Positions 8,515-50,269 of a stretch of 64,000 bases of DNA are shown here, piece after piece. This DNA is from Candidatus Omnitrophota bacterium (GTDB lineage: Bacteria; Omnitrophota; Gorgyraeia; Zapsychrales; Zapsychraceae). Position numbers and translations under genes: made by a program. The notes below the pieces were generated by a model that worked only from the letters and a program-made list of their open reading frames with translations, was not told the DNA's origin and searched no databases. The DNA is taken from positions 118,591 to 182,590 of the forward strand of contig JADFXT010000003.1 in the NCBI GenBank assembly GCA_015233405.1, given 5' to 3'. Numbering within the stretch: the stretch's first letter is position 1; each line of letters begins with the position of its first letter.

Positions 8515-8559
8515 ATGTTCTCCTTTTGTTTTTATATTCATTTTATTACGAATGCGGAA

Positions 8560-9619: not shown

Positions 9620-9674
9620 CTTAAAAGACTCCATGAAAAAAGGGCTGTTATTCTTTTCTTAACAGGCTCAATTT

Positions 9675-12958: not shown

Positions 12959-12966
12959 AAAACTCC

Positions 12967-15003: not shown

Positions 15004-15014
15004 AATTGTTTCTC

Positions 15015-21834: not shown

Positions 21835-22565
21835 TATTTTGCATAACTGATAATCTGATAAGCAGAATTAAAGAATGCGACCATAAAACCTATCAATCCA
21901 TCTTTATATCCTTTTTTGGCGACATAAGTCCGGAAAAACCGATCGACCGCGCGCCAAAAATATTTCCCGAACGTGAATTTCTTATTCGATTTAAACATCT
22001 TGGTCGCTTCGGCGGTCGTCTGATTATTGAGCTTCGTAAGATAATGCGTAAAATCCCTGTAACTTTTATGAATCGTATCTTTTGTCAGAAACTTGACCTT
22101 TCCCGTCGCACGGACAATCGGATGAACCTCAACCTCTTCAGATTTAAGATGCCCTTTACGAAAAAGCCTCAGTTGAGGCGCCGGATATTGTCCTCCGTAC
22201 TGAAGCCAATAATCACCAATATAATTACGGTGGGGAATTCCATAAACATCCGCTTGAGGATTGGCTAACTCGTCTTCAATTTCTTTTTTTAATTCTTCCG
22301 TCAGGATTTCATCCGCATCGAGGACTAAAGCCCACTCACATGTCCCTTGGTCATTTGCCCAATTTCTGTGGACGCCTTCGATGTCCATTTTCCTAAAGAG
22401 GATTCGGTCTGTGTACTGTTTAGCGATCTCAACCGTCTTATCCGTACTCTCGTCGTCAATAATGACAATTTCTTTCGCCCAACCATAAACACTTTTTAAG
22501 CAGTCATGCAGGCGCTTTTCTTCATTCTTGACACAAACAATAATGGACAAAGGCACAGGGATCAT
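21804..22565 (-). CDS. Glycosyltransferase family 2 (WaaE/KdtX-like), tandem paralog 2
   Basis: Same motif set as the neighbour (IIDDESTDKT, LDADE, KKGYKDGLIGFMVAFF...YAKYW). Confidence 0.8.
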   Translation of the reverse strand: MIPVPLSIIVCVKNEEKRLHDCLKSVYGWAKEIVIIDDESTDKTVEIAKQYTDRILFRKMDIEGVHRNWANDQGTCEWALVLDADEILTEELKKEIEDELANPQADVYGIPHRNYIGDYWLQYGGQYPAPQLRLFRKGHLKSEEVEVHPIVRATGKVKFLTKDTIHKSYRDFTHYLTKLNNQTTAEATKMFKSNKKFTFGKYFWRAVDRFFRTYVAKKGYKDGLIGFMVAFFNSAYQIISYAKYWEMTQKKQS

Positions 22566-31399: not shown

Positions 31400-31516
31400 A
31401 AATCCGAAACACGAAGCACAAAATACGAAACAAATCCGAAATCAGAAAATTTTAAATATTGGATTTTGCATTCTTGCTTTCCTTGTTTCGAATTTCGACA
31501 TTCGAATTTCGGATTT
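31400..31516. repeat. Palindromic intergenic element, family 2 (AAATCCGAAA / TTTCGGATTT arms)
   Basis: The 32-nt arms 31400-31431 and 31485-31516 are imperfect inverted repeats. An inner AAATCC...GGATTT pair sits at 31432-31466. The element shares the 16-mer AAATCCGAAATTCGAA with 35228-35243. Confidence 0.7.
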
Positions 31517-32690
31517 AAAGGATATTTTTGACTCGCAAAAACTCCTCGACTACTTCCGCGACGTAATCGCAGTTTTTCAGCTCAATGTCTTGATGTATGC
31601 CGATATGTGTCCCGTTATTCGAGCAATATTCCGCTTCCGGAAAATCCCCGAGCTTATATCCCATAAATGCGTAACCGGCGCACTGAGTCGGAATGGAGTA
31701 GAACAAATTCCGCGAATCAATGCCAGAGGCTTCCAGATACTGAACAAATTCATTTTTAGTAAATCCCGCGTTTTCCTTGACGATGATGGCAAACGCATGC
31801 GGACCGACTTTTTCGTGCGGTTCCTCTTTTGTATAAATAAAATATTTGCTGAACCGTTCGAATTTCTTAGAAAGATACTTTAAATTCCGCCGGCGCTTCT
31901 CCAAAATCTTCTTAAAAATAGCGACGTTGCCCAATCCGACCGCCGCCTCAAGCTCGTTCATCTTGGCGGAAAATCCTATTCTACGAAATTCAAATTTATT
32001 GACTATGCCGTGATTGCGAAGCGAGCGTAACACTTCCGCCATTTTGGGATTATTCGTAATCACAATGCCGCCTTCGATGGTCGTGATAATATGCGCGGCA
32101 TAAAGACTAAACGCCGCCATGTCGCCGATGGTCCCCAGCATCTTTCCTTTATATTCCCCGCCGTGCGCCTCAGCCGTATCCTCAATGATAAAAAGTTTGT
32201 ATTTTTTTGCGATCTGCTGAATCTTATCCATCTGGGCGGGTTTTCCCATCAAATGGACCGGCATGATCGCCCGTGTTCGTTTGGTAATGGCCGCCTCTAT
32301 TTTATCCGCGTCGATATTAAGTGTTTCGCGTTTCACGTCGACAAAGACCGGTTTAAACCCGGCCTGAAAAACCGCACTGGCTGTCGCCACAAACGTCAAG
32401 GCGGGGACAATGATCTCATCGCCACGCTGGGCGCCAAAATCATAAAGCGTTGCACACGCCAGGGCATTGGCATCCGTGCCGCTTGAAACGGCCACGGCTT
32501 CTTTGACGCCAAAGATCGCAGCGAATTTCTGTTCGAATTCCTGAACATATTTGCCGCGCGTTACCCATTTCGACTTTAGCGCTTCATTGATCAACTTGAC
32601 CGCTTTGTCGGTAATAGAAACAGTTCCAAACGGAACTTTATATTTGGCCTTGGCTGAAAATGTCGAGCTTTTATTATGATCAATCTTCAA
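31515..32690 (-). CDS. DegT-family PLP enzyme of the ColD/RfbH type (probable nucleotide-sugar 3-dehydratase); His replaces the Schiff-base Lys
   Basis: DegT-fold motifs are present, but the active-site segment reads FSLYAAHIITTIEGG (His200, codon at 32091-32093). The in-window paralog has FSFYPTKGLG at the same place. Confidence 0.7.
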   Translation of the reverse strand: MKIDHNKSSTFSAKAKYKVPFGTVSITDKAVKLINEALKSKWVTRGKYVQEFEQKFAAIFGVKEAVAVSSGTDANALACATLYDFGAQRGDEIIVPALTFVATASAVFQAGFKPVFVDVKRETLNIDADKIEAAITKRTRAIMPVHLMGKPAQMDKIQQIAKKYKLFIIEDTAEAHGGEYKGKMLGTIGDMAAFSLYAAHIITTIEGGIVITNNPKMAEVLRSLRNHGIVNKFEFRRIGFSAKMNELEAAVGLGNVAIFKKILEKRRRNLKYLSKKFERFSKYFIYTKEEPHEKVGPHAFAIIVKENAGFTKNEFVQYLEASGIDSRNLFYSIPTQCAGYAFMGYKLGDFPEAEYCSNNGTHIGIHQDIELKNCDYVAEVVEEFLRVKNIL

Positions 32691-32709: not shown

Positions 32710-33417
32710 CTAAAATTTCAAAACACTTTGCGCTTTTTGATAGCGCTCAGGGGTTCCGATATCGTAAAACGGCTTATCTGTGATAAAACCGAAAAACTGT
32801 TTGCCGAGAAGCGTCGGGAAAAAATTAGTCTCAAGAGAAAACCTGTCTTCCTGGGGCATGAGCTTAAAGACTTCCGACGACAAACAATAAATCCCCGCAT
32901 TCACATAAGAAGGCCCACCGACTTGCTTTTCCTTAAACGAAACAATTTCCTGATGGTCATTAAGCGTAATGCCGCCAAAATCCCTGCTGTCGTCGGTTTT
33001 TGATACGGCCAAACACGCTTGGGCATTTTTCTTTAAGAAATAATCCAAAAACTCCTCTAGATCAAGCGCGCAAAAAGAATCTCCATTGAATACGAAAAAT
33101 GGATTGCCTTTAACTAAGGGTTGGGCATTTTTGATAGCACCTCCCGTCCCGAGCGGCGTCTCTTCCCGGGAAAAAACAATATCCACGCCTGGAAAATGGC
33201 CAGCATAATGATTTTCTAAAATATCAGCTTTGTATCCCGTGCACAAGACAATATTACGGATTCCTTGGTTTTTGAGATATCCGATGAGAATATCCAAAAA
33301 CGGCTTGTCATTGACCTTTGCGAGGACTTTTGGAGCGCCTTGCGTGACCGCCTGAAGACGCTGGCCGAGCCCTCCGCACAGGATGAGTGCTGATATTTTG
33401 CTTAGGTTTTTTTCCAT
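32710..33417 (-). CDS. Sugar-1-phosphate nucleotidyltransferase (HddC-like)
   Basis: ALILCGGLGQRL, PLGTGGAI and the ~235-aa size match the HddC/short NTP-transferase family. I prefer the ATG at 33417 over the TTG at 33420. Confidence 0.75.
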   Translation of the reverse strand: MEKNLSKISALILCGGLGQRLQAVTQGAPKVLAKVNDKPFLDILIGYLKNQGIRNIVLCTGYKADILENHYAGHFPGVDIVFSREETPLGTGGAIKNAQPLVKGNPFFVFNGDSFCALDLEEFLDYFLKKNAQACLAVSKTDDSRDFGGITLNDHQEIVSFKEKQVGGPSYVNAGIYCLSSEVFKLMPQEDRFSLETNFFPTLLGKQFFGFITDKPFYDIGTPERYQKAQSVLKF

Positions 33418-35197
33418 CAAGGCTCTTTCGTTGATAAATAACCGATTTGCTCGTCGTAGCCTTCATCACATAATTCTGGGCGACAAACCAGAGCATATCG
33501 TTAAATTTGATCCTATTATTGTCGTTGAGGAAATAGACATCATTATATTTCGCGCTAAACACTTTCGGCAGAACAATATATTGCGGCGGATTTTCTTTTA
33601 AATCCGTCATCAGCTGTTGATGCCACCGATCATTAAGCCAAGACAATGTTGCCATGGGAAAACGCCCGTACACCGACCTTTGCGCTAGAAAATAAAGCGC
33701 GCCTTCTTCAGGGTACATAAAAATCCGGTCTTTATCGCTAATAAATTTTTGCATCATGGCCGTCAAGGATTCCAAGTCCTCGGCTTGAACAGCTGGAACG
33801 ACCATCCCCTGGGCTCTCAAAATCCGTAAAGGCCTTTCGACAGTCGGCGCAGCTTTCAAACAAATTTGCTGACCTAGAAGGATTTTCGTCATCGGGAATT
33901 TTTTATAATAGCGGATGAGCGCAAAGCCTAAAGAAGAGCCGATAAATAAAAACATTAAAACAGGAATGACCATTTTCCTCAGGCACAACGGAACTTCTTG
34001 CTTCGCTGGCTCAACAGTCCCAAATAAATCTGGTGTCGTCTCTCGACGGGATTTGGAGGTTTTTAATGGCAAATCCGCCGGCTGATTGAGGATGGTCTTC
34101 TCTGGACATAACGCGTGTTTGAAATCGCTCAGAAAAAAAACAAAAAATCGTTCCAAAAGATAAAACAAGATAATTTTCTCCGGCTGAAGTGCCATAAGAA
34201 ATCCGGCCCCTTCCTTATGGCCAAGTGCCAGGACAAACAAGGTCGCCCCATAACCCGCCAACGTCACTAAAATCGCGTGGTCTTTGGTAACACGATTATT
34301 TTTAAACTCCTGGTAACAAAAAATACTAAAAGCCAGATAGAGATATGCGGGCGTCAAGAATTTAAAATGCGGATTTCCCGGAATCAGCCACGCTATAAAC
34401 TCTAACGCTGTTTTAGGATATGTCCCGGGAGCCATGACCTTTGCCGCACCCAAGATAACCGTCCCCAACGAATTAAGGTAAGCGACCAACGATCCCGTGA
34501 GGATCAAATAAAAAACATACGGCAGAAAAATAAAAAGAATGCCACGGCCAAAAACGTCAAAATGTTCTCGGAAAAGTTCTCGCGAAATGATCTTGAACAT
34601 ATAGGCAAAACATAGCCCTAGAACAATCCCGACAAAAGCACAAACGCCGATCTCCCAATTTGAGAGAAATGCGCAGGCTGTGAGAATTCCCGCCGATAAC
34701 AACCACCCCTTTTTTTGTTTCTGAATATATTTTACGGCAGAGTAAACAATCCATAAGCCAAAAACATATCCCAATCCGTCTGCACAGGTAAAAATACCCT
34801 GAGGAAATGTCCTGGCAATCAAAACAACCATGCAAAGTGCATAAACAAATTTTGTCTTAAAGACATCTTTAGCGATCAAGACACAGAGCAAAAATGTCAG
34901 GACATTGCTGATATAAAAATAAAGCGAAAGCGTCGGAATATTGACCCCAAAGAATTTCATAACAAGGGCCGGCAAGTATAAGGTCAGAGGGCCATACAAA
35001 TGAAAGAAATCCCGGTAAGGCACCAGCCCTTTTAACACGGCATCTACGCCGGGAAGAAATAAGCCGTATTGATAAAGATTCATTTCCCCATTGAGATAAT
35101 TAGGGAATATGCAGATAAAGACCGTGAACAGGGCCAAGGCAAGAGCATTCCCATAAGTCGGTAAACCATAGAGCCAGTCTGTCTTTATTCTTTTCAT
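33308..35197 (-). CDS. Large polytopic membrane protein, paralog B (GT-C/ArnT-like candidate)
   Basis: Paralog of 26891-28543. The last ~38 aa (SLDGKKPKQNISTHPVRRARPASSGGHARRSKSPRKGQ) overlap the next gene out of frame and extend past the paralog's homologous end. Confidence 0.6.
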   Translation of the reverse strand: MKRIKTDWLYGLPTYGNALALALFTVFICIFPNYLNGEMNLYQYGLFLPGVDAVLKGLVPYRDFFHLYGPLTLYLPALVMKFFGVNIPTLSLYFYISNVLTFLLCVLIAKDVFKTKFVYALCMVVLIARTFPQGIFTCADGLGYVFGLWIVYSAVKYIQKQKKGWLLSAGILTACAFLSNWEIGVCAFVGIVLGLCFAYMFKIISRELFREHFDVFGRGILFIFLPYVFYLILTGSLVAYLNSLGTVILGAAKVMAPGTYPKTALEFIAWLIPGNPHFKFLTPAYLYLAFSIFCYQEFKNNRVTKDHAILVTLAGYGATLFVLALGHKEGAGFLMALQPEKIILFYLLERFFVFFLSDFKHALCPEKTILNQPADLPLKTSKSRRETTPDLFGTVEPAKQEVPLCLRKMVIPVLMFLFIGSSLGFALIRYYKKFPMTKILLGQQICLKAAPTVERPLRILRAQGMVVPAVQAEDLESLTAMMQKFISDKDRIFMYPEEGALYFLAQRSVYGRFPMATLSWLNDRWHQQLMTDLKENPPQYIVLPKVFSAKYNDVYFLNDNNRIKFNDMLWFVAQNYVMKATTSKSVIYQRKSLDGKKPKQNISTHPVRRARPASSGGHARRSKSPRKGQ

Positions 35198-35335: not shown

Positions 35336-36319
35336 TTACGTTGGTTGATAAAAAATAATTTGCGTCCCCAGGTTTTCAAATTTAAACGGCACAAAAAGAA
35401 GTTTTCGCAGTGTCTGCCGGACTTTCCGCTGGTTTTCCGGAGGAACGAATAACAGCATAAAGCCGCCGCCACCGGCGCCCAACAATTTTCCGCCGATTGC
35501 TCCCGATGCCCGGGCTGCTTTATAAATATCATCGATATGCGATGTTGAAATTTTGTCCGAAAGGGTTTTCTTAATGCGCCAAGATTCATGCAAAAGCTTT
35601 CCGAATCGACGGATATTGCCCTTTTGTAGAATATCTGTGGCTTCAAAGACCATGTCATACATCGCCTTAAGTTCGGCTTTTTTATTAGGGATATTTTGTA
35701 TCTGATGCGCCGCGATCGTCGAGGCGATCCGGGAAAAACCGGTGAAATACAGCATGAAATGGTTTTCCAATTCCTTGATGCGCTCCGGAGCGATGGTCAC
35801 ACTTTGCAGCTGAAAATCATTCTTTCCGTCAAACTGGATGAGATTAAGACCGCCGAACGCCGCTTGGATCTGGTCCTGACAACCGACATTTTCCCGGCAC
35901 ATATTTTGTTCAATATAGATCGCTTCCTTAGCCAATTGCCGCTTGGTCGTCATTTTTCCTTTTAAAGCATAAAGGGCATTTAAAAGCCCGACGGTAAATG
36001 AGGAACTCGACCCAAGTCCTGTGCGGGCAGGCAGATCGCCATCGTGATGGATTTCCAAGCCTTCTTTGATTTTTAAAAACCGCATAACTTCACGCACCGC
36101 CGGGTGATCAATTTCATCAATGGCTTTGATATGTTCCATTTTGGAATAAATAATACGGGACTTGTAGCCAAAAAAGGGCGGCAAATACCGGCACGTGATG
36201 TAACAATACTTATTGATGGTCGTGGCAAGAACAGCCCCCTTATTATCAGCAAACCATCCCGGATAGTCCGTGCCTCCTCCAAAAAAAGAAACGCGAAACG
36301 GTGTGCGGCTGATGATCAT
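35336..36319 (-). CDS. GHMP-family sugar kinase (HddA-like, heptose-7-phosphate kinase type)
   Basis: MIISRTPFRVSFFGGGTDYP N-terminus, GHMP motif PARTGLGSSSSF, 327 aa. Confidence 0.75.
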   Translation of the reverse strand: MIISRTPFRVSFFGGGTDYPGWFADNKGAVLATTINKYCYITCRYLPPFFGYKSRIIYSKMEHIKAIDEIDHPAVREVMRFLKIKEGLEIHHDGDLPARTGLGSSSSFTVGLLNALYALKGKMTTKRQLAKEAIYIEQNMCRENVGCQDQIQAAFGGLNLIQFDGKNDFQLQSVTIAPERIKELENHFMLYFTGFSRIASTIAAHQIQNIPNKKAELKAMYDMVFEATDILQKGNIRRFGKLLHESWRIKKTLSDKISTSHIDDIYKAARASGAIGGKLLGAGGGGFMLLFVPPENQRKVRQTLRKLLFVPFKFENLGTQIIFYQPT

Positions 36320-36353: not shown

Positions 36354-37832
36354 CTAATCTTTCGGGTAATTGTTCCGAACAAGTTTGACCATACACATCT
36401 TTTTAATATTGTTGACCGCCTCAAGCCCAAAACGTTCTTCAATTCGCGCGAGGTATCGCGGGTCTGTAAAATAATTATCAAAAGCCTCGTCGCGGAACTT
36501 AAGGACTTGTGGGCCGGACAAATATTTGGTGGCCAGCGGTAAGCAATCTTTACTGAACTGGGAATACGCGCTCCAGCTTTTCGGAAGCGGCGTTCCCTGT
36601 TGGACGGCATCCGCATAAAGCTTCGAGCCCGGATAGGCCATGGCGCAATAAAGGTTCGCGTACGCACAATTGAGTTCCTTGGCCAGATCAAGGGTTTCCT
36701 GCATGGTTTCCATATCATCATCGGGAAGCCCGAAAATAAAATTCGAAACGACCTCAATCCCAGCGTCGTGCGTCATGGCAATGACCCGCTTGATGTCGTC
36801 TTGCGTGAATCGTCCTTTCGTCACCCCGTCGCGGACCTTTTTACTTCCAGCTTCAATCCCATAAGCAAGCCAGTTGATTCCCGCCTGCTTCATTTTTTTA
36901 AGCATATGTTCCTTGACCGAATCAATTCGTCCGTAAGCCCAAAAATTTAATTTCTCGCCCAAGCCTTTGGCAATGATCCCGTCACAAATCGCCTCCACAT
37001 GGCTCCATTTGGAGACAAACAGCTCGTCGAGAATTTTAATATTTCTCATCCCATAATGTTTAACCAAATATTCGACTTCCTCGACCACTTGCTGTGGCGG
37101 ACGATACCGAATTCCGGGCTTGCCGAAAATCGAATTGATGCAGCAAAAATCGCAATGAAATGGACAGCCTAAGCTGGTATAAATCACGGCATACGGCTGA
37201 CGCTCTTTAATGTGCGAAAAACAATGCCAATTGTGCGCGCGATACTTATCCATCGGCAAGAGATCCCACGCCGGCATGGGCAAAATCCCTAAGTCATCGA
37301 TATTTTCCGCTCGAGGATTAGAAAAAATTCTCCTATCTTTCCGGTACCAAAGTCCTTTGATGCAAAATTCATCGCCAATGTCTTTCTTTGACTTTAATGC
37401 GGCAACCAGCTCAAGATGCGTCGTAAATCCTTCGCCCTCGACAACAAAATCAGCAGCCTCTTCTTTCATCGTTTGTTCGGGCAAAGCCGAAGGGTGAAGC
37501 CCGCAAAGAACCGTTGGGATATCTTGAGCGACTTTTTTTATTTCTTGTAAAAAAAGACCGGCGCCCGGCATATTGATCGTCGAGGCTGACGGATTTGTCC
37601 CGGATACAACCACGGAAACCAAAACAGGCTTAAGCGTCACTGCACGTTCTATGGTTTCTTCAACACTTAAATTCTCCGCCTCTGCATCAATAACAGAAAC
37701 CGTGGCGCCACTTTCACGCAGATACGCGGCCATTAAAATAAGCCATAACGGCGGCTCGATCCCCGAAAAATCTTCGCTTAACGCCTGAAAGACTTTCTTT
37801 TGATTATTGGGCTTGATAAGAACGATATCCAT
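36354..37832 (-). CDS. B12-binding-domain radical SAM enzyme (class B)
   Basis: N-terminal B12-binding-like Rossmann domain, followed by the radical SAM cluster motif CPFHCDFC (CxxxCxxC). Confidence 0.8.
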   Translation of the reverse strand: MDIVLIKPNNQKKVFQALSEDFSGIEPPLWLILMAAYLRESGATVSVIDAEAENLSVEETIERAVTLKPVLVSVVVSGTNPSASTINMPGAGLFLQEIKKVAQDIPTVLCGLHPSALPEQTMKEEAADFVVEGEGFTTHLELVAALKSKKDIGDEFCIKGLWYRKDRRIFSNPRAENIDDLGILPMPAWDLLPMDKYRAHNWHCFSHIKERQPYAVIYTSLGCPFHCDFCCINSIFGKPGIRYRPPQQVVEEVEYLVKHYGMRNIKILDELFVSKWSHVEAICDGIIAKGLGEKLNFWAYGRIDSVKEHMLKKMKQAGINWLAYGIEAGSKKVRDGVTKGRFTQDDIKRVIAMTHDAGIEVVSNFIFGLPDDDMETMQETLDLAKELNCAYANLYCAMAYPGSKLYADAVQQGTPLPKSWSAYSQFSKDCLPLATKYLSGPQVLKFRDEAFDNYFTDPRYLARIEERFGLEAVNNIKKMCMVKLVRNNYPKD

Positions 37833-37981: not shown

Positions 37982-38914
37982 TTAAATGTTCGCGTACTGA
38001 TTGCGCTTGATGACCTGATACCCTTTGATAAGTTCCTTAAGCCCGTCGGGTAAAGAGACCTGCGGCTTAAATCCCGTCTTCTCTATCTTTGCGTTACTAA
38101 CGATATAATCACGCTTGTCCGGGTCTTCGCCGATCGCGGATTCCACAAAATAAAAATCCGGAATCAGTTTCTTGATCTCCTCGCAGAGTTCCATCTTGCT
38201 TAAATTCGCATCGCTTAAGCCCACATTATATGGCTCATTTTTCATGGCGCTAAAATTCTTCAAACTATGGATAAACGCACGGGCCACGTCGCGGGTATGG
38301 ATATAATTACGCTTAAAATGCGCCTCAAATAAGACGACATAACGATCATAAACAGCGCGGTACGTAAAATCGTTGACCAAAAGGTCGAGGCGCATCCGCG
38401 GGCTTATGCCGAAGGCTGTTGCCAGACGAAGCGTAATGGCATTACCTGACGATAAAAGGGCATTCTCGGCGTCAACTTTAAGCTTGCCGTATAAAGAGAT
38501 CGGCCTTAAAGGGGTTTCTTCCGTACAGAATTTTCCTTTTTCTCCTATACCATAACCGCTATTGGTCGTCGGAAAAATGATCATCTGGTCCTTGCTGCGC
38601 AACTTTAAGATCATTTCAATAGCGCCGAGCAAGATTGCCTGGGCGGCCTCAGGCTCTTTTTTACACAAGGGCGCACCGGTCAAACACGCTAACGGAAAAA
38701 TCGCATCGGCATTCTTTATGAGGCGCGCCAAAAGTTCTTTATCCCGCGTGTCTCCTCGGATGATCGTCAATTTTGGGTCATAGCAGCAGTCCAATAAAGA
38801 CGATTGATTGTACATAAAATTATCCAATACCGTCACTGTATGATTTTCTTTTAAAAGTTCCGGCACCATCACTGACCCTAAATACCCTGCCCCACCTGTC
38901 ACTAAAATGTTCAT
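37982..38914 (-). CDS. NAD(P)-dependent sugar epimerase/dehydratase/reductase (extended SDR)
   Basis: VTGGAGYLGS Rossmann motif and YGKLK catalytic pair, 310 aa. Confidence 0.75.
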   Translation of the reverse strand: MNILVTGGAGYLGSVMVPELLKENHTVTVLDNFMYNQSSLLDCCYDPKLTIIRGDTRDKELLARLIKNADAIFPLACLTGAPLCKKEPEAAQAILLGAIEMILKLRSKDQMIIFPTTNSGYGIGEKGKFCTEETPLRPISLYGKLKVDAENALLSSGNAITLRLATAFGISPRMRLDLLVNDFTYRAVYDRYVVLFEAHFKRNYIHTRDVARAFIHSLKNFSAMKNEPYNVGLSDANLSKMELCEEIKKLIPDFYFVESAIGEDPDKRDYIVSNAKIEKTGFKPQVSLPDGLKELIKGYQVIKRNQYANI

Positions 38915-38918
38915 TGCA

Positions 38919-39854
38919 TTACTCCTTCTTTTTATTTAAAAACCACTGATACGTTTCTTTAATGCCTTCCTTTAGTTCCTTCTTGGCTTTCCAACCCAAA
39001 TGCGCGATGCGGCTATTATCCAACAATTTCCTCATCGCTCCATCGGGCTTAGAGGAATCAAAAACTAATTTTCCTTTAAATCCCGCCGCATTTGCAATCA
39101 GACTTGCCAAATCCTTAATCGACACATCCGACCCGCAGCCGATATTGATAACCGCTTCTTCATCATAATGCTCCATCAAAAATGAACACGCCTGGGCAAA
39201 ATCATCCTTAAACAAAAATTCTCGCCGGGGATTTCCAGTTCCCCAAATGACGACTTCGGGCTGATTATTCTTCATGGCGTTCGCGAATTTGCCAATCAAC
39301 GCACCCATCACATGCGCCGTCTCTAAATTCACATCGCTTCCGGGACCATAGACGGTTGGTGGAATAGCTACGATGGCATTTAATCCATATTGCCGATGGA
39401 ACATCTGGGCTAATTTTATACCGGCAAGCTTCGCTAGCGAATACGCTTCGCTGGTCTCTTCCATCTTTCCCGTGCCGATATATTCTTCTTTCATAGGTTG
39501 ATCACAAACCTTGGGATATACACACGAGCCTGCCAAATAAAGCAATTTCTTGACGCCAAACTTTTGTGCGGCGTAAATGATATTGTTTTGGCTCTCGAGG
39601 TTGTGATACATAAATTCCGCACCCATCTTCTGGTTGGCTTCGATCCCGCCGGAGCGCGTGGAACCTAAGAAGACATAATCCGGCCGCTCAGAGGCGAAAA
39701 AGCCATAAACAGAAGCCTGAATGGTTGTATTGATTCCTATTTTCGACGACGAAATGATATGGGTATAACCGCTGGCCTCGAAATACTCCACCAGCGAGTT
39801 TTCGATGATATCATTATGCCCGACGACAAATATTTTGGAATTTTTATCCATCAC
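38919..39854 (-). CDS. GDP-L-fucose synthase / ColC-like SDR with atypical N-terminal nucleotide-binding motif
   Basis: Collinear with Fcl (GSCVYP, YSLAKLAGIK, WGTGNPRREFL, FDSSKPDG, YQWFL). The GxxGxxG position reads GHNDIIE. Confidence 0.75.
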   Translation of the reverse strand: MMDKNSKIFVVGHNDIIENSLVEYFEASGYTHIISSSKIGINTTIQASVYGFFASERPDYVFLGSTRSGGIEANQKMGAEFMYHNLESQNNIIYAAQKFGVKKLLYLAGSCVYPKVCDQPMKEEYIGTGKMEETSEAYSLAKLAGIKLAQMFHRQYGLNAIVAIPPTVYGPGSDVNLETAHVMGALIGKFANAMKNNQPEVVIWGTGNPRREFLFKDDFAQACSFLMEHYDEEAVINIGCGSDVSIKDLASLIANAAGFKGKLVFDSSKPDGAMRKLLDNSRIAHLGWKAKKELKEGIKETYQWFLNKKKE

Positions 39855-39965: not shown

Positions 39966-41006
39966 CTATTTTATAACCTTCTTAACCGCTTCGACGATGT
40001 CTTTGACTCCCGGATAGAATGCATCCTCGAGCGTATACCCGCTCGGCGTTGGAATATCAGGAAACGCGACCCGAACCGGCGGCTTCTTTAAGTATGAAAA
40101 TCCTTTTTCCGCGACGATCGCAAGCACCTCGGCTGAGAATCCGCCGGTCTTCCAACTCAAATCCGCCATGACCAGCTTGCCGGTTTTCTTGACCGAATTT
40201 AAAATCATTTCTTCATCCAGGGGTTTGAGTGTGCGCGGGTCAATCACCTCGACGTCAACACCTTCTTTTGCTAACTCATCCGCTGCTCGCAAACTTTCCG
40301 GCACCATGTGTGAGACCGCGACGATCGTCACATCTTTTCCTTCCCGACGGATAACGCCCTGCCCAAAAGGAATGGCATAAATTTTTTCCGGCACATAGCC
40401 TTGGTGTTTATAGAGCCAGCGCTGTTCGATAAAAATAACCGGATTATTGTCCGCGATGGCCGTGATCAAAAGTCCTTTAGCATCATACGCCGTCGTCGGC
40501 ATCACAACTTTCAATCCCGGAATATGTACAAATAACGACTGAAGTGCCTGAGAATGCTGCGCCGCCGAGCCCCAGCCTCGTCCGATGCAGGTGCGAATGA
40601 CCAAAGGAATCGGGACCTGGCCGTTAAACATATAGCTCCACTTGGAGGCGTGATTAACGATCTGGTCCATGGCCAAAAGAAGAAAATCCGGACGGTTGTG
40701 AATATAAACGGGGCGCATGCCAGCCATGGCCGAGCCCACGGCAATACCCATTAACCCATTCTCGGAAAGGGGCGTGTCAAAAACACGCTTGATGCCATGT
40801 TTTTTATAAAGCCCGTCGGTAGAACCAAACATTCCAGCCGGGTCGTTGATGCCTTGTCCCATCACATAAACGCGCGGGTCATTGGCCAAAGCCTGGTCCA
40901 AGGCTTCACGCAAAGCGTCGCCATAGGAAAGTTTACGCACATCTTTCCCCTTGTCCGCATCAAAATGCGGCTCTTGGCGTTCCATATGTAATTTTGTCCA
41001 GGGCAT
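39966..41006 (-). CDS. TPP-dependent 2-oxoacid dehydrogenase E1 component, beta-subunit-like
   Basis: Transketolase pyrimidine-binding and C-terminal domains (RVFDTPLSENGLMGIAVGSAMAGMRP...). Confidence 0.85.
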   Translation of the reverse strand: MPWTKLHMERQEPHFDADKGKDVRKLSYGDALREALDQALANDPRVYVMGQGINDPAGMFGSTDGLYKKHGIKRVFDTPLSENGLMGIAVGSAMAGMRPVYIHNRPDFLLLAMDQIVNHASKWSYMFNGQVPIPLVIRTCIGRGWGSAAQHSQALQSLFVHIPGLKVVMPTTAYDAKGLLITAIADNNPVIFIEQRWLYKHQGYVPEKIYAIPFGQGVIRREGKDVTIVAVSHMVPESLRAADELAKEGVDVEVIDPRTLKPLDEEMILNSVKKTGKLVMADLSWKTGGFSAEVLAIVAEKGFSYLKKPPVRVAFPDIPTPSGYTLEDAFYPGVKDIVEAVKKVIK

Positions 41007-41018
41007 TTAATGAGTCCT

Positions 41019-41095
41019 TAATTTATGGAGCGAAGCGAACATAAATTAGACGGACGAATTAATCCCGCGTTTCCTTGCGAAGCAAGGTTGCGGGA
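41019..41095. repeat. Two intergenic hairpins between the E1 alpha and beta genes
   Basis: First hairpin: TAATTTATG-N12-CATAAATTA (41019-41048). Second, nested hairpin: TCCCGC..CCTTGC-GAA-GCAAGG..GCGGGA (41063-41095). Confidence 0.6.
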
Positions 41096-42070
41096 CTACT
41101 TCGCAAACAAATATTTTTCCAACTCTTCATTTTTCGGCAGCGGACTGTCTTGGCCGAACTTAAAGGCTTCTTCGACTTCCTCGTCGATCTTCTGATAAAT
41201 AGCGTCAAGCTTTTCTCTCGACGATATCTTTTGCTTAATTAGATATTTCTCCAAGCTCGCTAATGGATCGCGCATCGTTTTTTCATCCAGGATATCTTCC
41301 GGATTACGGTAAAGCTTGGCCTGCGGATCACCGGCTCCCGCATGCGCTCGCCAACGCTGGACATTAAACTCCAAAAAATACGGGCCTTTGCCTCGACGGG
41401 CGTGGGTAACAGCAGCCTCCGCCGCTGCATAGACTTTAAAAATATCCATCCCGTCCACGGTCTTAGCAGGAATATCAAACCCTAAAGCGCGGGTGGCTAT
41501 CGGCATCTCGGCCTGACGGACTTGTATCGGCGAGCAGACAGAATATTTATTGTTCTCACAAACAAAAATAACAGGAAGATTATGGAGTTTCGCCCAGTTC
41601 ATGCTCTCCTGCAAAACACCCTCTTCCGAGGCCGCATCGCCGAAAAAGCTGACCGCCACATTCTTTTTCTTTTGCATGACAAACGCCATGGCCGCTCCGA
41701 CCGCGTGGGGAATAGATCCTGCCACGATCGCCGACGAGCCATAATGCCCGACGGACGTGTCGATCAAATGCATGGAGCCGCCCCGGCCTTTCGCGCAGCC
41801 GGTTTCCTTACAGAACAATTCCGCAAAAAGCGCCTTTAAGTCCCCGCCTTTGGCCAAATAATGCCCGTGCCCGCGGTGGTTACTAAAGATCATATCGCTT
41901 GTTTTAAGATGTGCAGAGACCCCGACGGACACAGCTTCTTCGCCTAAGCATAAATGGACCGGCGTTTTCATCTGGTCTTCATGATAATGCTTTTCGATCT
42001 TTAGCTGGGTCTTACGGATACGCGCCAAAGATATCAATAACTTAAATAATTTTTCTTTAGATAAACGCAT
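41096..42070 (-). CDS. TPP-dependent 2-oxoacid dehydrogenase E1 component, alpha-subunit-like
   Basis: TPP-binding motif FFGDAASEEGVLQESMNWAKLHNLPVIFVCENNKYS, 324 aa. Confidence 0.85.
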   Translation of the reverse strand: MRLSKEKLFKLLISLARIRKTQLKIEKHYHEDQMKTPVHLCLGEEAVSVGVSAHLKTSDMIFSNHRGHGHYLAKGGDLKALFAELFCKETGCAKGRGGSMHLIDTSVGHYGSSAIVAGSIPHAVGAAMAFVMQKKKNVAVSFFGDAASEEGVLQESMNWAKLHNLPVIFVCENNKYSVCSPIQVRQAEMPIATRALGFDIPAKTVDGMDIFKVYAAAEAAVTHARRGKGPYFLEFNVQRWRAHAGAGDPQAKLYRNPEDILDEKTMRDPLASLEKYLIKQKISSREKLDAIYQKIDEEVEEAFKFGQDSPLPKNEELEKYLFAK

Positions 42071-42089: not shown

Positions 42090-43034
42090 TTAAGAATGAT
42101 GGACTTTAAACCATTGCACGGTCTTTGTTAATCCCTCGGCAAGGGGAACTTGCGGTGTCCACTTAAGATATTGTTTCGCTAAGGAGATGTCAGGCTTGCG
42201 CTGTTTGGGGTCGTCCGTCGGTAAAGGCTCAAAAATAATCTTACTTTTAGAGTTGGCTTCTTTAATAACCAATTTAGCGAATTCCAAAATCGTAAATTCA
42301 TCCGGATTACCGATATTAACGGGGCCGGAGATCGAGGAATAAAGGAGCCTGACAATACCATCGATCAAATCCGAATAATAACAAAATGACCTGGTTTGTT
42401 TCCCGTCGCCATAAACCGTAATATTTTTTCCATGAAGCGCTTGATAAATAAAATTTGGAACCACACGGCCGTCGTTAATACGCATCCGCGGCCCGTAAGT
42501 ATTAAAAATACGGACAATCTTGGTATCCATTTTATGAAAACGCCGATAAGCGAACACAATGGCCTCGGCAAACCGCTTGGCCTCGTCATAAACACCGCGC
42601 GGGCCGATGGGATTGACATGCCCCCAATAGGTTTCTTTCTGCGGATGTTCCAACGGGTCCCCATAAACTTCTGACGTCGACGCTAAAAGATACCTGGCCT
42701 TCTTAAGCTTGGCCAACCCTAAAGTATTGTGCGAGCCCAACGACCCGACTTTTAATGTTGGAATAGGATGCTTCAAATAATCCACCGGGCTTGCCGGCGA
42801 GGCAAAATGAAGCACATAATCGACCGGCCCTGCGATGCGGAACTCTTTCGAGACATCGTGCTTGATAAACTCAAAATTCTTTTCTTTTTTCAAATGCTTG
42901 ATATTATTCAGATTTCCGGTGATAAGGTTATCGACGGCAATGACCTTAACCCCATCACTTAAAAGCCGGTCGCTCAAATGGCTTCCCAAGAAACCAGACC
43001 CGCCGGTGATGACTGCAACTTTCTTTCTGGACAT
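42090..43034 (-). CDS. UDP-glucuronate decarboxylase (UDP-xylose synthase-like SDR)
   Basis: [18 protein letters not shown], 314 aa, collinear with UXS. Confidence 0.85.
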
Positions 43035-43051: not shown

Positions 43052-44353
43052 TTAAAATCGAATAACTTTTTTGTTCTGATTTTTTCCGTAAACATTACGG
43101 ATATCAAAAATACACTGGGCATGTTTTAGAATAAGATCATAATCCACCGCCGTATGGTCAACGGCGATAAGAACGGCATCATATCCACAGACCGCCTTCG
43201 GTCCAAGCACAACAGATTCCTGATTGATCTTGCCGATCTTTAGATATGGGATCACCGGGTCAAAATAATCCACAGCGCATCCGTGAGCCTTAAGATGCTC
43301 GATGAGTTTTAACGACGGCGATTTCCGGAGGTCCTTGACGTCTTTTTTATACGTCACACCCACAACAAGCACCCGGGCTTTCGACAAAGTTTTCTTCTGA
43401 AATGTTAAGATTTGCCCCAGGCGTTCGACCGCATACATCGGCATCGCAGCATTAATGTCCGCCGACAATTTGATAAATTTTGAGTTAAACCCATACCGTT
43501 TGGCTTTCCAATATAAATAAAGCGGGTCTTCGGGGATACAATGCCCGCCGACGCCTAAGCCCGGATAAAACGGCATGAACCCGAACGGTTTGGTTTTCGC
43601 TGCCTCAATGACCTCCCAGATATCAATGCCCATCTTATGGCACATCATGGCCACTTCATTGATCCAGCCAATATTGACGATACGAAAAGAATTCTCCAAG
43701 AGCTTCGTCATTTCCGCGGCCTTGGCCGTCGAGACAAGATGAACGTCTTTAATGATCTTTTCATAAAGAGACTTAGTCAGCTGCCCGCTCTTAAGACTTA
43801 GTCCGCCGACGACCTTAGGGATCAACGTCACGTCATATTTCTTATTGCCGGGATCAATTCTCTCCGGAGAAAACGCCAGAAAGAAATCTTTCTCCGCCTT
43901 TAGCCCTCTTTTTTCCAGCTCGGGACGAATGAGCTCCTCGGTCGTGCCCGGATAGGTCGTACTTTCCAAGACGACCAAAGTATTTTTCTTAAGATGCTGG
44001 GACACGGCTTTAACGGCACTGAGAATAAAAGAAATATCGGGTGTATATTTCCGCTTTAATGGCGTTGGCACGCAGATGATAATGACATCCGCATCTTTAA
44101 TGACGGAAAAATCCGTCTGGGCCCTTAAAAAACCTTTTTTAACAACGCCCGCCAACTCTGACGTAGGGATATCGAGAATATAGCTTTTCTTCTGATTTAC
44201 CTGATTGACACGATCGACGTCATTATCAAGCCCAACGACCGTAAATCCTCTTTTCGCAAAACTAACGGCCAAAGGTAGTCCAACATACCCAAGCCCCACG
44301 ACGGCGATCTTGGCTTTATGCAAAGAAATTTTCTTTTCTAGAATGGTTGACAT
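43052..44353 (-). CDS. Nucleotide-sugar 6-dehydrogenase (UDP-GlcNAc/ManNAc dehydrogenase, WbpA/TviB/WecC-like)
   Basis: [12 protein letters not shown], catalytic GGHCIPEDP, 433 aa. Confidence 0.8.
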
Positions 44354-47900: not shown

Positions 47901-48824
47901 TTAGAATTTTTCTTTGACGAGAACAAAAGCTCCGATTAAAGCCGCGTCATTGCCGAGCTTGGCCCGCACGACTTTAACCATATCCGCCTGCGTTTTCATG
48001 GATCGCTTTTTAATAACGTCTGCGATCGTTTTTCCTAAAAATTGATAACTATTGGAAACGCCTCCCCCGATAATGATCAGCCGCGGATTCAGAAGATTGA
48101 CCACTCCGACTAAAGCGTTGCCGATATGCGCTGCGGCTTCTTCCCAAAATTGAATGGCACGGCTGTTATCCTTCTTGGCTAAATCAAAAACATCTTCAAG
48201 GGCAATGGCCTTATTCTTAAAAATTTTAGCAGCTTTTTCCTGGAGGGTCTGGTTGCCGACATATCGCTCAAAACATCCCTCTCCGCCGCAATTGCACACC
48301 GGCCCTTTTTCATTAAGCGGCATGTGCCCGATTTCTCCGGCGGCAAATCCTTCGCCTCGGTATAAAGTATTATCCAAAATCATTCCTCCGCCGACACCGG
48401 TCCCCAGCGTGATACAAATAAGATTTTGATATCCCTTGCCCGCCCCATATTTCCATTCACCCAACGCCATGACATTCACATCGTTATCGATAAACACCGG
48501 CAACTTTGTTGCGTTTTGCATGATGTTTCTTAAAGGAACATTGCGCCAGCCCGGAACATTCGGAAGGAATAAAACTATGCCGTTCTTAGGATCAATCAGC
48601 CCCGGCAAGCCCATGCCGATGCCTAAAATATTGTTCTTGGTTAATCGGTTTTCTTCAATGAGCTTATCAATACTTTGAACAATGGTCCGGATAAGTTTCT
48701 GTTTATTACTGGCAAAATTCTTTGTGGCAAGATTCGCTCTCGAAACGATCTTTCCGCTGGTGTTCACCAGGCCTAATTTAATATTGGTTCCGCCGAAATC
48801 GACGCTAATAACGAATTTTTTCAT
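47901..48824 (-). CDS. ROK-family sugar kinase (glucokinase-like)
   Basis: DFGGTNIK ATP motif and ROK Zn motif GHMPL...CNCGGEGCFE. Confidence 0.85.
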   Translation of the reverse strand: MKKFVISVDFGGTNIKLGLVNTSGKIVSRANLATKNFASNKQKLIRTIVQSIDKLIEENRLTKNNILGIGMGLPGLIDPKNGIVLFLPNVPGWRNVPLRNIMQNATKLPVFIDNDVNVMALGEWKYGAGKGYQNLICITLGTGVGGGMILDNTLYRGEGFAAGEIGHMPLNEKGPVCNCGGEGCFERYVGNQTLQEKAAKIFKNKAIALEDVFDLAKKDNSRAIQFWEEAAAHIGNALVGVVNLLNPRLIIIGGGVSNSYQFLGKTIADVIKKRSMKTQADMVKVVRAKLGNDAALIGAFVLVKEKF

Positions 48825-48835
48825 ATTATCCCAAT

Positions 48836-49016
48836 TTTTGCATTACAACGTTTTGCGCGACGATTCGTCGCGCATTAAAAGATGTAATGCAAAATTTGCC
48901 TTCGGTTGCGGCGGAGCCGCGAGGATTAATCCTTTCAAATCTCTCCAGGGCAGAGATTTGAAACCCTGTGGGCGGATTTTGCGTAACCCCGCAGGAGCGG
49001 GGCTAATGCAAAATCC
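48836..49016. repeat. Cluster of three intergenic hairpins
   Basis: First: 48836-48894, TTTTGCATTACA...TGTAATGCAAAA enclosing GCGCGACGA-T-TCGTCGCGC. Second: 48936-48960, CAAATCTCT-N7-AGAGATTTG. Third: 48974-49016, GGATTTTGC..CCCCGC-AGGA-GCGGGG..GCAAAATCC. Confidence 0.7.
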
Positions 49017-49225
49017 GGGATTATTTTGATATATATTTATATTCTTAAAAATATTTAAAAATTAAAATAACAAATTATTTTATAGGACGGAAAACATTTT
49101 ACATGATAAATACGGCAGGTTCAACCCAAATTTCAGGCGTTTGCACACTGATAAAGAGGCTGGAAAACGCTCAAAAATCAAAGAAAAACAGGCAAGTTTT
49201 GTATCGCGGGATAAAGGAACAGGCT

Positions 49226-50251
49226 CTACTTTTTATCTGTGATTTCGGCAAAGCAGAAAACTTTGTTGCGACCATATTTTTTGGCTCGGTATAAAGCAAA
49301 ATCCGCTTTATCAACCAAATCATTGATGTTCTGGCCATCGGAAGGATAATTCGAAACACCAATACTCACGGTGGTCTGAACAAGCGTGTCATAAGCTTTA
49401 ATGGCGGATTCTTCAACGGATTTACGAATACGTTCCGCGACATACTGCGCGCCTAAATAATCCGTATCGGGAAGGACAATACAAAATTCTTCTCCGCCGT
49501 AACGCCCCGGGATATCAATTTCACGGATGCTATCTTTGATAATATTACCGATTTCCCTTAACACTTGATCGCCGGTCAAATGGCCATGCGTATCATTAAC
49601 AGCTTTAAAGAAATCCACATCCATCATCAAGAAAGACAATTTGATATTACGAGCCTTAGACCGTTTGACTTCTTCCTGAAAACGCTCCATGACATACCGG
49701 CGCGTATAAACATCCGTTAAACTATCCATGATCGCGACTTGCTCGATTTCTTCATAAAGCGCCACGCGCCTTAAGGCCAGAACAAACTGATTGCCAAGAA
49801 TCATGACCTTTTCTTTATCCTCCTCGGCAATTCCTTCTAAAACCAGATATCCTATCAATCTCTTTTTTTCTTGCAGAATAAAAACAAACTGCTCCTTTAA
49901 GGCCTGGAATTCTTTTTCTCCCTCTAATCCTGCCTTAACAAGCTGACAGGATTTAAAACGGACATGCTGTGCAAGCTGCTTTTTGAAAATATCAAACGCC
50001 TCTTTTTCTGTTAGACTTTTGGTGATCTCACGGGTGATTTCATATAAGGTAAAAATCTTGATCGCTTCTTCTTCAAATTTCATTTTTTCCTGATAACGCG
50101 CTTCTTTCTTCTCGCGAAATTCCTGCAAATCTTTCTTATGGGCTAAGAGATCTTTCTCGAGTTCTTCTTCAAAAGAAACCGCAGACCTTTTCGCACAATA
50201 AAGGACAAAGGCGGCATAAGCTGCAACGATGATTAACGAAACAACGATCAT
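49226..50251 (-). CDS. Diguanylate cyclase (TM + coiled coil + GAF-like + GGDEF), I-site present
   Basis: REID-IPGRY-GGEEF (RxxD five residues before GGEEF), N-terminal TM. Confidence 0.85.
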   Translation of the reverse strand: MIVVSLIIVAAYAAFVLYCAKRSAVSFEEELEKDLLAHKKDLQEFREKKEARYQEKMKFEEEAIKIFTLYEITREITKSLTEKEAFDIFKKQLAQHVRFKSCQLVKAGLEGEKEFQALKEQFVFILQEKKRLIGYLVLEGIAEEDKEKVMILGNQFVLALRRVALYEEIEQVAIMDSLTDVYTRRYVMERFQEEVKRSKARNIKLSFLMMDVDFFKAVNDTHGHLTGDQVLREIGNIIKDSIREIDIPGRYGGEEFCIVLPDTDYLGAQYVAERIRKSVEESAIKAYDTLVQTTVSIGVSNYPSDGQNINDLVDKADFALYRAKKYGRNKVFCFAEITDKK

Positions 50252-50269
50252 AAAAAACCTCTTCTTTTA

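Follow-up and report, generated by a model that had tools for sequence, protein, structure and literature searches.

Enzymes described as 'alpha-keto acid dehydrogenase 2' attach two-carbon branches at C3 or C4 of keto-sugars, the evidence being feeding and knockout experiments on aldgamycin and the in vitro coupling of pyruvate to ketones by KbDH-alpha/beta; about 120 such gene clusters have been tallied, the known E1-type sugar-branching enzymes seem to be limited to C2 units from pyruvate, and in known cases the branch's keto group is later reduced, methylated, oxidised or transaminated (PMC12247030). AviB1/AviB2 and Pau11/Pau12 are proposed makers of C2 branches on keto-sugars. EvdS6 releases UDP-4-keto-xylose, and the pyruvate dehydrogenase (PDH)-like EvdU5/EvdS3 are proposed to carry out the acetylation (PMC10338323). 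YerE acts on a 3-deoxy-4-keto sugar and gives the acetyl branch of yersiniose (PMC9306805). In the literature that we searched, E1-type sugar branching comes from actinomycete antibiotic clusters, and the branched sugars of lipopolysaccharide (LPS) are credited to YerE-type enzymes. Here we analyse an E1 alpha/beta-like gene pair in a 64-kb stretch of contig JADFXT010000003.1 (assembly GCA_015233405.1), from a Candidatus Omnitrophota metagenome-assembled genome (MAG); the whole stretch is referred to as the window. A preliminary description of the window had pointed to an avilamycin-type precedent for such a pair, and the proposals for AviB1/AviB2, Pau11/12 and EvdU5/EvdS3, together with the in vitro work on KbDH-alpha/beta (PMC12247030), bear it out. 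The reading that we favour, with a probability of roughly 55%, is that the pair is a stand-alone, sugar-branching alpha2beta2-type carboligase dependent on thiamin diphosphate (ThDP), an enzyme like those called 'alpha-keto acid dehydrogenase 2', working outside the 2-oxoacid dehydrogenase complexes. Its most likely role is to place a two-carbon branch on an activated keto-heptose that is destined for a glycan of the cell envelope.

The two genes of the pair are as follows:

41096-42070 (-): E1 alpha-like subunit (ThDP/PP domain), 324 aa, ATG start; Pfam E1_dh, E 1.1e-69
39966-41006 (-): E1 beta-like subunit, 346 aa, ATG start; Transket_pyr, E 2.3e-35, and Transketolase_C, E 2.2e-39

Both subunits had been called catalytically intact in the preliminary description, and the residues agree. 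In alpha, the ThDP motif G144-D-A-A-S-E-E-G ... N173-N174 (the GDAASEEG...NN noted earlier, residues 144-174) is intact, and alignment with the E1s of the PDB places the active-site histidines at H39 (TPVHLC) and H243 (RAHAGAGD). Beta, in which pyrimidine-binding and C-terminal domains had been recognised and are matched by Transket_pyr and Transketolase_C, keeps the cofactor-activating Glu82 (PLSENG) and His151 (AAQHSQ), which align to catalytic residues of PDB E1s. The alpha sequence matches, at 100% identity, an NCBI entry from a Candidatus Omnitrophota MAG, encoded on a 186-kb contig, and homologues with 55-67% identity are plentiful in Omnitrophota, Elusimicrobia and MAGs labelled Planctomycetota. 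The best matches among solved structures are human PDH E1 alpha (184 bits) and, for beta, Geobacillus PDH E1 beta (262 bits). Against the NCBIfam models, alpha stays under the cutoff of PDH_E1_alph_y (TIGR03182; 313 bits against 393.85) and fails TIGR03181 (218 against 411), while beta fails the PDH E1-beta equivalog (324 against 454) and clears only the PDH E1-beta subfamily model (348 against 321). Identity of the pair to plasmid-borne E1s that are linked to an E2 acyltransferase is about 39-40%.

No gene for E2 or for the E3 dehydrogenase had been seen next to the pair, and none was found anywhere in the 64-kb window by phmmer with E. coli AceF and Lpd or by Pfam scans of the remaining open reading frames (ORFs). 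Relatives were collected by a motif scan of species-representative genomes, one per species, in which at least 595 stretches encode a relative of the query. Locus context was taken from the best 80 of these, a sample biased to the query, with ORFs labelled by phmmer using the window proteins and E. coli AceF, Lpd, GmhA and Arn proteins; individual loci are given by number (L001 and so on). The best 80 stretches come from Omnitrophota, Elusimicrobia, Firestonebacteria, Desulfobacterota, Chloroflexota, Caldisericota, Nitrospirota, Nitrospinota, Pseudomonadota, lineages of the candidate phyla radiation (CPR) and archaea. With at least 595 such stretches, and many phyla among the best 80, the arrangement is not a rare one, which amends the preliminary description, where a branched-sugar role for a cell-surface glycan was called unusual. 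Forty-six loci were well flanked, 27 of them in the window's own cassette sub-clade (see below) and 19 other E2-less loci, and E2 or E3 was found within 10 kb in 0/27 and 0/19, respectively. Among all labelled loci, E2 occurs only in L077, beside a second E1 pair, and E3 in none. In five contigs that encode homologues of alpha, the neighbours were likewise sugar genes and never E2 or E3. By comparison, the four plasmid-borne reference E1 pairs (Klebsiella, Enterococcus, Rhizobium and Desulfotalea) all have E2 directly downstream.

The same separation emerged when 92 alpha subunits were placed in a neighbour-joining tree (323 columns, 100 bootstraps). The outgroup consisted of seven alphas, six of them E2-linked (the four plasmid-borne references, one L077 pair and human) and the seventh from the second L077 pair, which lies next to the L077 E2 operon. 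All 85 E2-less alphas, the window's included, form one clade with bootstrap 98, apart from the seven outgroup sequences. Phylogeny against E2-linked E1s, which the preliminary description had named as a check, thus puts the pair on a separate branch, and the tight clustering with bona fide dehydrogenases that would have spoken against its proposal is not seen in this tree. The window alpha falls into a 44-tip sub-clade (bootstrap 83) that is tied to the gene cassette described below. Residues P37 and G245 of alpha are specific to the E2-less clade.

The beta subunits differ between the two groups as well. Among 78 E2-less betas, conservation of H103, R105, R143 and R196 reaches 99-100%, whereas in all seven E2-linked betas positions 103, 105 and 143 are hydrophobic or small and position 196 is Lys, Gln or Leu. 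R143 lies 8 residues before the catalytic His151. These substitutions are compatible with an acceptor funnel adapted to an anionic nucleoside diphosphate (NDP)-sugar, which we infer from the alignment rather than from a structure. The lipoyl- and E2-interaction residues, to which the preliminary description had drawn attention, were less informative. Loss of the beta residues that contact the peripheral subunit-binding domain of E2 was considered and rejected as a marker: of the presumed contact positions, a single column could be placed, aligned to the Glu of Geobacillus 'SLEAP'. The window has Lys there, but three E2-linked betas do as well, and the column therefore fails to tell E2-less from E2-linked betas. 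As a separate observation, the E1 betas of L058, L049 and L091, members of the other E2-less clade, are extended at the C-terminus by 20-30 residues that end in a shared VPDP[AS]FTGPF (GFAGPY in the Streptomyces beta), an extension missing in the window protein and in the E2-linked betas.

The genes that accompany the pair bear on its function. Genes within 11 kb of the E1 pair were counted in the 27 well-flanked loci belonging to the sub-clade of the window; E1 beta itself was present in 27/27, and E2 and E3 in 0/27 each. The partners in the window are listed here, with the number of cassette loci that encode each where it was counted:

37982-38914 (-): 310-aa short-chain dehydrogenase/reductase (SDR), Cj1427-like (GDP-heptose C4-dehydrogenase type); 400 bits, E 4e-119 and 57% full-length identity to PDB 6vo6/6vo8; 25/27 loci
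31515-32690 (-): predicted ColD-type sugar 3-dehydratase (DegT1; Pfam DegT aminotransferase), with His200 in place of the pyridoxal phosphate (PLP) Lys; 24/27 loci
35336-36319 (-): HddA/WcbL-like GHMP sugar kinase (heptose-7-phosphate anomeric kinase type); PDB 4usk/4usm, 128-129 bits; 22/27 loci
32710-33420 (-): short HddC-like sugar-1-phosphate nucleotidyltransferase; PDB 6jq8/5xhw, 142 bits, and Pfam NTP_transferase; 22/27 loci
36354-37832 (-): B12-binding radical S-adenosylmethionine (radical-SAM) enzyme; Pfam B12-binding and Radical_SAM; 22/27 loci
38919-39854 (-): Fcl (GDP-fucose synthase)-like protein; 41% identity to E. coli Fcl, NCBIfam Fcl 364 against a cutoff of 500; 16/27 loci
20378-21028 (-), at the end of the gene array: GmhB-like HAD phosphatase (heptose 1,7-bisphosphate phosphatase type); PRK08942 146.5 against a cutoff of 178

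The synteny of sugar genes with E1 is kept in over ten phyla, CPR bacteria and DPANN-type archaea among them, and E1 often opens the cassette as its first gene. The same cassette is found on plasmid pDMC1 (L090) of the cultured Solidesulfovibrio magneticus RS-1, in the order GT2 glycosyltransferase, GT2, radical SAM, NUDIX, kinase, E1 alpha, E1 beta, Fcl-like, DegT, SDR, nucleotidyltransferase, hypothetical, GT-C glycosyltransferase, two hypotheticals, L-2-hydroxyglutarate oxidase and SIS isomerase. Its E1 alpha and beta genes are DMR_RS21995 and DMR_RS22000, its DegT gene is DMR_RS22010 and its Cj1427-like SDR gene is DMR_RS22015. No paper describing this cassette was found in the literature searched, and the combination of a GDP-heptose scaffold with Cj1427-type, ColD-type, E1 carboligase and B12-radical-SAM enzymes in envelope loci is undescribed there.

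Several of the partners resemble enzymes of GDP-heptose metabolism. The 310-aa SDR matches a 313-aa C. jejuni protein, PDB 6vo6, which, with the reference list of PMC10680097 as a guide, we take to be Cj1427. Cj1427 makes GDP-4-keto-heptose, its tightly bound NADH being turned over by the conversion of 2-oxoglutarate to L-2-hydroxyglutarate, and together with the C3-dehydratase of C. jejuni HS:5 it gives GDP-3-deoxy-4-keto-heptose in vitro (PMC10680097). The RS-1 cassette encodes an L-2-hydroxyglutarate oxidase (L090, 22380-23582) that clears its NCBIfam equivalog cutoff (328 against 299), and homologues occur at L006, L017 and L021 in the cassette clade and at L072 in the other E2-less clade. 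The presence of such an oxidase in E1 clusters fits Cj1427-type ping-pong chemistry, in which it probably recycles the L-2-hydroxyglutarate from Cj1427-type sugar dehydrogenases. WbpB-type sugar dehydrogenases are also of the ping-pong type and yield L-2-hydroxyglutarate. The GHMP kinase matches 4usk/4usm (presumably WcbL) and, at 117-118 bits, the D-glycero-D-manno-heptose phosphate kinases 3k85 and 4n3o, and reaches 149 bits with NCBIfam HddA, under the cutoff. The nucleotidyltransferase matches 6jq8/5xhw, deposited as '6-deoxy-D-mannoheptose pathway protein' and taken by us to be HddC. Both enzymes fall under the NCBIfam equivalog cutoffs, and heptose substrates for them are predictions from homology. 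The GmhB-like phosphatase passes HAD-IIIA subfamily models.

The DegT protein is not the aminotransferase that its family name suggests. His200 (SLYAAH200IITT) occupies the column of ArnB K188 in the window DegT1 and in every cassette orthologue, while ArnB and a second DegT of the window keep Lys. The Lys-to-His change is the defining one of NDP-sugar 3-dehydratases such as ColD and the dehydratase E1 (PMC8987622). Matches of DegT1 in the PDB are GDP-perosamine synthase (the best), E1 dehydrase and ColD. Its Cys pattern does not fit the presumed Fe-S motif of E1/SpnQ. A role as an aminotransferase that aminates the acetyl branch was considered and is ruled out by the replacement of Lys with His.

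The radical-SAM enzyme has weak NCBIfam matches to HpnJ (160 bits) and BchE (150 bits), both far under cutoff, and C-methylation or radical rearrangement of the branched sugar are its candidate roles. The Fcl-like protein was noted in the preliminary description as a neighbour of the pair; it is indeed present and keeps C109, Y136, K140 and H179 in alignment with E. coli Fcl, but its NADPH-binding GxxGxxG motif is degenerate (GHNDIIENS). Degenerate motifs are also found in Omnitrophota orthologues (GHEDIIDSS, GKGDVIETS) and in RS-1 (GGGKAVCRA), the loci concerned being L001 12040-12969, L002 12040-12969, L040 and L090 14052-14981, while other cassette loci keep GHxGxxGSA. The protein may be restricted to epimerisation, or changed in some other way, and leave the 4-keto group untouched. 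GT2s resembling undecaprenyl-phosphate or dolichyl-phosphate sugar synthases (ArnC/PgfS-like, AglJ-like) lie within the cassette or next to it, as does a GT-C; RS-1 has both types on its plasmid, where a GT-C follows the cassette. GT2 together with GT-C suggests export on polyprenyl phosphate and periplasmic transfer.

From the Cj1427-like SDR, the ColD-type dehydratase, the kinase and the nucleotidyltransferase, the cassette is predicted to encode the means to make an activated 3-deoxy-4-keto sugar. The co-occurrence of these partners (22-25 of the 27 loci, against 8/27 for the UDP-xylose synthase (UXS) and UDP-glucose dehydrogenase (UGDH) types) makes GDP-4-keto-(3-deoxy)heptose, rather than UDP-4-keto-xylose, the likely acceptor. 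A pathway can be proposed in which every step rests on homology and gene context. The HddA-like kinase would phosphorylate C1 of heptose-7-phosphate and the GmhB-like phosphatase would take off the 7-phosphate. C4 would be oxidised by the Cj1427-like SDR, probably with 2-oxoglutarate as the oxidant, and the ColD-type His-enzyme would strip the 3-OH to give GDP-3-deoxy-4-keto-heptose. The E1 alpha/beta pair would then decarboxylate pyruvate and add the hydroxyethyl-ThDP carbanion to the C4 ketone, the product being a 4-C-acetyl tertiary alcohol; the logic is that of YerE in the yersiniose pathway and of the role proposed for AviB1/B2. Tailoring of the branch would fall to the B12-radical-SAM enzyme, joined by the Fcl-like protein in cassettes that encode one, and GT2 and GT-C transferases would deliver the sugar to the envelope.

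A distant E2-less member, L072 (Nitrospina), has these neighbours: a fusion of a GFO/IDH/MocA oxidoreductase with a hexapeptide acyltransferase domain, an LhgO-like oxidase, SIS, a short-chain reductase, a methyltransferase, GT2 and a B12-radical-SAM enzyme. The GFO/IDH/MocA family includes sugar 3-dehydrogenases, and if the L072 oxidoreductase is a sugar dehydrogenase, this locus is consistent with a keto-sugar maker, E1 and tailoring enzymes acting together.

The pathway can be extended to a more specific proposal, which we put forward tentatively and with the odds against it: that the cassette makes an undescribed class of sugar, a 3-deoxy-4-C-branched heptose of at least nine carbons, whose branch is remodelled by the B12-radical-SAM enzyme and which is exported and attached by GT-C as a shared envelope decoration. 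Remodelling could be C-methylation or an HpnJ/BchE-type radical C-C rearrangement or cyclisation. Export would be on polyprenyl phosphate, the periplasmic GT-C acceptors being lipid A, LPS core or other envelope components, and the decoration would be common to Omnitrophota, Elusimicrobia, Desulfobacterota, Chloroflexota, CPR bacteria and some archaea.

Immediately upstream of the pair lie three genes that point to a different acceptor:

42090-43034 (-): UXS-type UDP-glucuronate decarboxylase-like SDR; Pfam and NCBIfam matches, STSEVYG and YDEAKR motifs
43052-44353 (-): second NDP-sugar 6-dehydrogenase, WecC/TviB-like; UDPG_MGDP_dh domains, NCBIfam NDP-sugDHase 446 bits
44356-45690 (-): UGDH (NDP-sugar 6-dehydrogenase); UDPG_MGDP_dh N, central and C-terminal domains, NCBIfam TuaD 557 bits

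As the preliminary description had it, the pair sits between a UDP-xylose synthase and the Fcl-like gene, the UXS-type SDR being upstream and the Fcl-like gene downstream. This position implied a eurekanate-like route, in which UDP-glucuronate formed through the two dehydrogenases would be converted by the UXS-type enzyme to free UDP-4-keto-xylose and the E1 pair would acetylate the pentose, as in the EvdS6/EvdU5/EvdS3 proposal (PMC10338323). The order UGDH, second dehydrogenase, UXS, E1 alpha, with gaps of 2-19 bp in the window, repeats in L002, L004, L007-L009, L013 and L040. We nevertheless consider this acceptor unlikely. UXS and UGDH are each present in 8/27 loci, against 25/27 for the Cj1427-like SDR, and their neighbourhood, which also includes LptD, is confined to the Omnitrophota-type sub-clade. 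A second pathway, Arn-like or for xylose, could also account for UGDH, UXS, a Lys-type DegT, GT2 and GT-C. The branched-sugar role given to the pair in the preliminary description therefore stands as far as the missing E2/E3, the intact catalytic residues, the sugar-nucleotide neighbours and the separate phylogeny go, while UXS and UGDH drop out as the general partners of the clade. Prediction of the UXS product from sequence was given up, since the EvdS6 paper says that structures do not explain the differences in product.

A second alternative places the pair early in the pathway, as a chain-building enzyme that transfers a C2 unit to an aldose phosphate in the manner of transketolase or DXS, the ketose phosphate then being isomerised (SIS), phosphorylated (GHMP) and nucleotidylated. 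The lincosamide octose route, which starts with a transaldolase, is an analogue. SIS/GmhA-like genes lie directly beside E1 in L025, L030, L058 and L072 and are present in 9/19 of the other E2-less loci, E1 beta is homologous to the Pyr and C-terminal domains of DXS and transketolase, and the first place that E1 often takes in the cassette would suit an early step. However, no E1-type enzyme is known for such a reaction, and a pyruvate donor would lead to 1-deoxy-ketoses, which cannot be isomerised to aldoses. Sedoheptulose-7-phosphate is already supplied by central metabolism, and the tight linkage to two enzymes that make or prepare a 4-keto sugar would be left unexplained, so that we regard chain-building as improbable. 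Two related schemes were also dropped, a pathway resembling the methylerythritol phosphate (MEP) pathway (DXS-like enzyme, cytidylyltransferase, GHMP kinase) and a 2-oxoacid decarboxylase of the 3-deoxy-D-manno-octulosonate (Kdo) type, since the kinase, transferase and SDR are homologues of heptose-pathway enzymes.

The donor might also be other than pyruvate. A non-oxidative 2-oxoacid decarboxylase/carboligase that takes, for example, 2-oxoglutarate or hydroxypyruvate would give a longer or functionalised branch, or yield an aldehyde co-substrate; the Cj1427-type cycle turns over 2-oxoglutarate within the cassette, and relatives in the YerE family take C4-C8 functionalised keto acids (PMC9306805). 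Against this, the known E1-type sugar-branching enzymes appear to use only C2 units from pyruvate (PMC12247030), and no conserved aldolase or donor-making gene is present in the cassette, which leaves another donor with little probability. Least probable of all is a conventional pyruvate, acetoin or branched-chain E1 whose E2 and E3 are encoded elsewhere and whose place among glycan genes is incidental: the best structure matches, the PDH E1-beta subfamily model and the full set of catalytic residues speak for it, but it is largely refuted by the lack of E2 and E3 at all 46 well-flanked loci (0/46), the separate clade with bootstrap 98, the alpha score under the equivalog cutoff, and sugar-gene synteny in more than ten phyla where genuine E2-linked pairs have E2 immediately downstream.

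Some points weigh against the sugar-branching carboligase that we favour. The tree is a neighbour-joining one, built on a query-biased sample with seven outgroup sequences, six of which are E2-linked. Pyruvate as donor, attack at C4 and the order of the steps are assumed, and the predicted biochemistry of the whole cassette is inferred. GmhA was not found in the window by phmmer with the E. coli protein; GmhA-like SIS genes are present next to E1 in the cassettes of RS-1, L020, L025 and L030. Lastly, L091 (Streptomyces griseofuscus plasmid pSGRIFU1, 14989-17035) is an E2-less pair with no sugar genes around it, and its alpha is the closest plasmid-borne relative of the window alpha (48% identity). 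Its neighbours are a condensation-domain protein, acyl carrier proteins, ketosynthases and gamma-butyrolactone regulators, so a place in the E2-less clade is not enough to infer a sugar substrate; the locus suggests another, non-glycan use of E2-less E1 pairs.

In the window, the pair and its partners belong to an LPS/glycan array of about 28 kb, a minus-strand run from a ROK kinase (48824) to the GmhB-like HAD phosphatase (20378) in which all gaps are 149 bp or less; these gaps on a single strand suggest an operon structure, and a terminator and promoter scan of the array gave no intergenic signal above chance. The array contains LptD, the two NDP-sugar dehydrogenases, the UXS-type SDR, E1 alpha, E1 beta, the Fcl-like gene and the 310-aa SDR, the B12-radical-SAM enzyme, the GHMP kinase, a PMT_2-type GT-C, the short nucleotidyltransferase and the first 'DegT', and GT4, GT2 and GT9 transferases, a ManC-like gene, the second DegT and the GmhB-like HAD. 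The GT-C is inserted in the cassette:

33308-35197 (-): GT-C (PMT_2/ArnT-like) membrane glycosyltransferase; Pfam PMT_2, 3e-07

A 550-aa ORF at 26891-28543 (-), which has no Pfam match, scores 267 bits against this GT-C. The second DegT (22562-23677, -) keeps the PLP Lys and is most similar to ArnB (177 bits). UGDH, the UXS-type decarboxylase, this Lys-type DegT, several GT2s and two PMT_2/ArnT-like GT-Cs make up a candidate Arn-like or pentose branch within the array. Some of the mechanically called ORFs overlap, 32710-33420 with 33308-35197 by 113 nt and 24768-25973 with 25823-26875 by 151 nt. For the nucleotidyltransferase and the ManC-like gene, the TTG start was probably set too far upstream, since the Pfam matches start at residues 11 and 66.

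An upstream block (47901-52637, -) with a MalK-like ABC ATPase, GAF-GGDEF, GGDEF, the ROK kinase and LptD is syntenic with the cassette in Omnitrophota-type genomes, including L001, L002, L004, L008 and L009. L008 and L011, from MAGs labelled Planctomycetales/Pirellulales, have near-identical arrangements, and these bins may be mislabelled. The rest of the window includes an O-antigen ligase, Wzz, Wza, the Kdp system, PriA and DnaK/DnaJ. A second polysaccharide module (480-9634, -) encodes two SDRs of the GDP-mannose-dehydratase/epimerase type, the Wzy_C O-antigen ligase, a Wzz/tyrosine-kinase-like protein, a Wza-like exporter, a beta-barrel porin and a formyltransferase (Fmt/ArnA-N-like), and is adjoined by the Kdp potassium-pump operon (10465-16718).

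If the favoured reading is true, an offshoot of PDH E1 would be a common tool for making the C-branched higher sugars of cell envelopes in many largely uncultured phyla, and a new set of carboligases would be on offer for making tertiary alcohols on nucleotide sugars. Labels such as 'pyruvate/acetoin dehydrogenase E1' would then mislead metabolic reconstructions of Omnitrophota and relatives in hundreds of genomes, and the annotation 'DegT aminotransferase' would have to become 3-dehydratase. To our knowledge, the CPR bacteria and archaea concerned are generally without such dehydrogenase complexes. The pDMC1 cassette in the cultured S. magneticus RS-1 makes the prediction directly testable.

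Set beside known systems, the pair shares with the E1s of pyruvate, acetoin and branched-chain dehydrogenases the fold, the ThDP motif and the catalytic His and Glu, and differs from them in having no E2 or E3 nearby, in its separate clade, in the Arg and His substitutions of beta and in an alpha score under the equivalog cutoff. With AviB1/B2, EvdU5/S3, Pau11/12, KbDH-alpha/beta (kibdelomycin) and the aldgamycin enzyme it shares the architecture of a two-subunit PDH-E1 with no E2/E3, and with the AviB1/B2-KbDH type a position among NDP-sugar genes, next to makers of keto-sugars, and an expected transfer of acetyl from pyruvate; this likeness is one of architecture and context, the comparison having been made with descriptions of these enzymes. 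Unlike the actinomycete enzymes, the pair is found in an LPS/envelope array in Omnitrophota and many mostly uncultured phyla rather than in a secondary-metabolite cluster, its predicted acceptor is a GDP-heptose where theirs are dTDP or UDP hexoses or pentoses, and it has a conserved B12-radical-SAM partner.

The pathway of YerE and YerF, which leads from CDP-3,6-dideoxy-4-keto-glucose and pyruvate to yersiniose A, has the same predicted outline: formation of a 4-keto group, C3 deoxygenation with PMP/PLP, ThDP-dependent acyl addition at C4 and then ketoreduction, for a Gram-negative surface glycan. YerE, however, is a flavoprotein made of one chain and belongs to the acetolactate-synthase/decarboxylase superfamily (TPP_enzyme N/M/C), while the pair is an E1 alpha/beta heteromer, and the YerE pathway runs on a CDP-linked 6-deoxyhexose where the cassette is predicted to use a GDP-linked heptose. 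Judged by its domains (E1_dh and transketolase-type, on two chains), the pair would work like YerE but is not a member of the YerE family. The capsular GDP-heptose pathways of C. jejuni, finally, share homologues of HddA, HddC, Cj1427 (57%), the His-type 3-dehydratase and an Fcl-like reductase (Cj1428-type). Their products are unbranched heptose epimers and deoxyheptoses, and their clusters have no ThDP enzyme ('thiamine' is absent from PMC10680097) and no B12-radical-SAM partner, the two components that the window's cassette sets beside the heptose genes.

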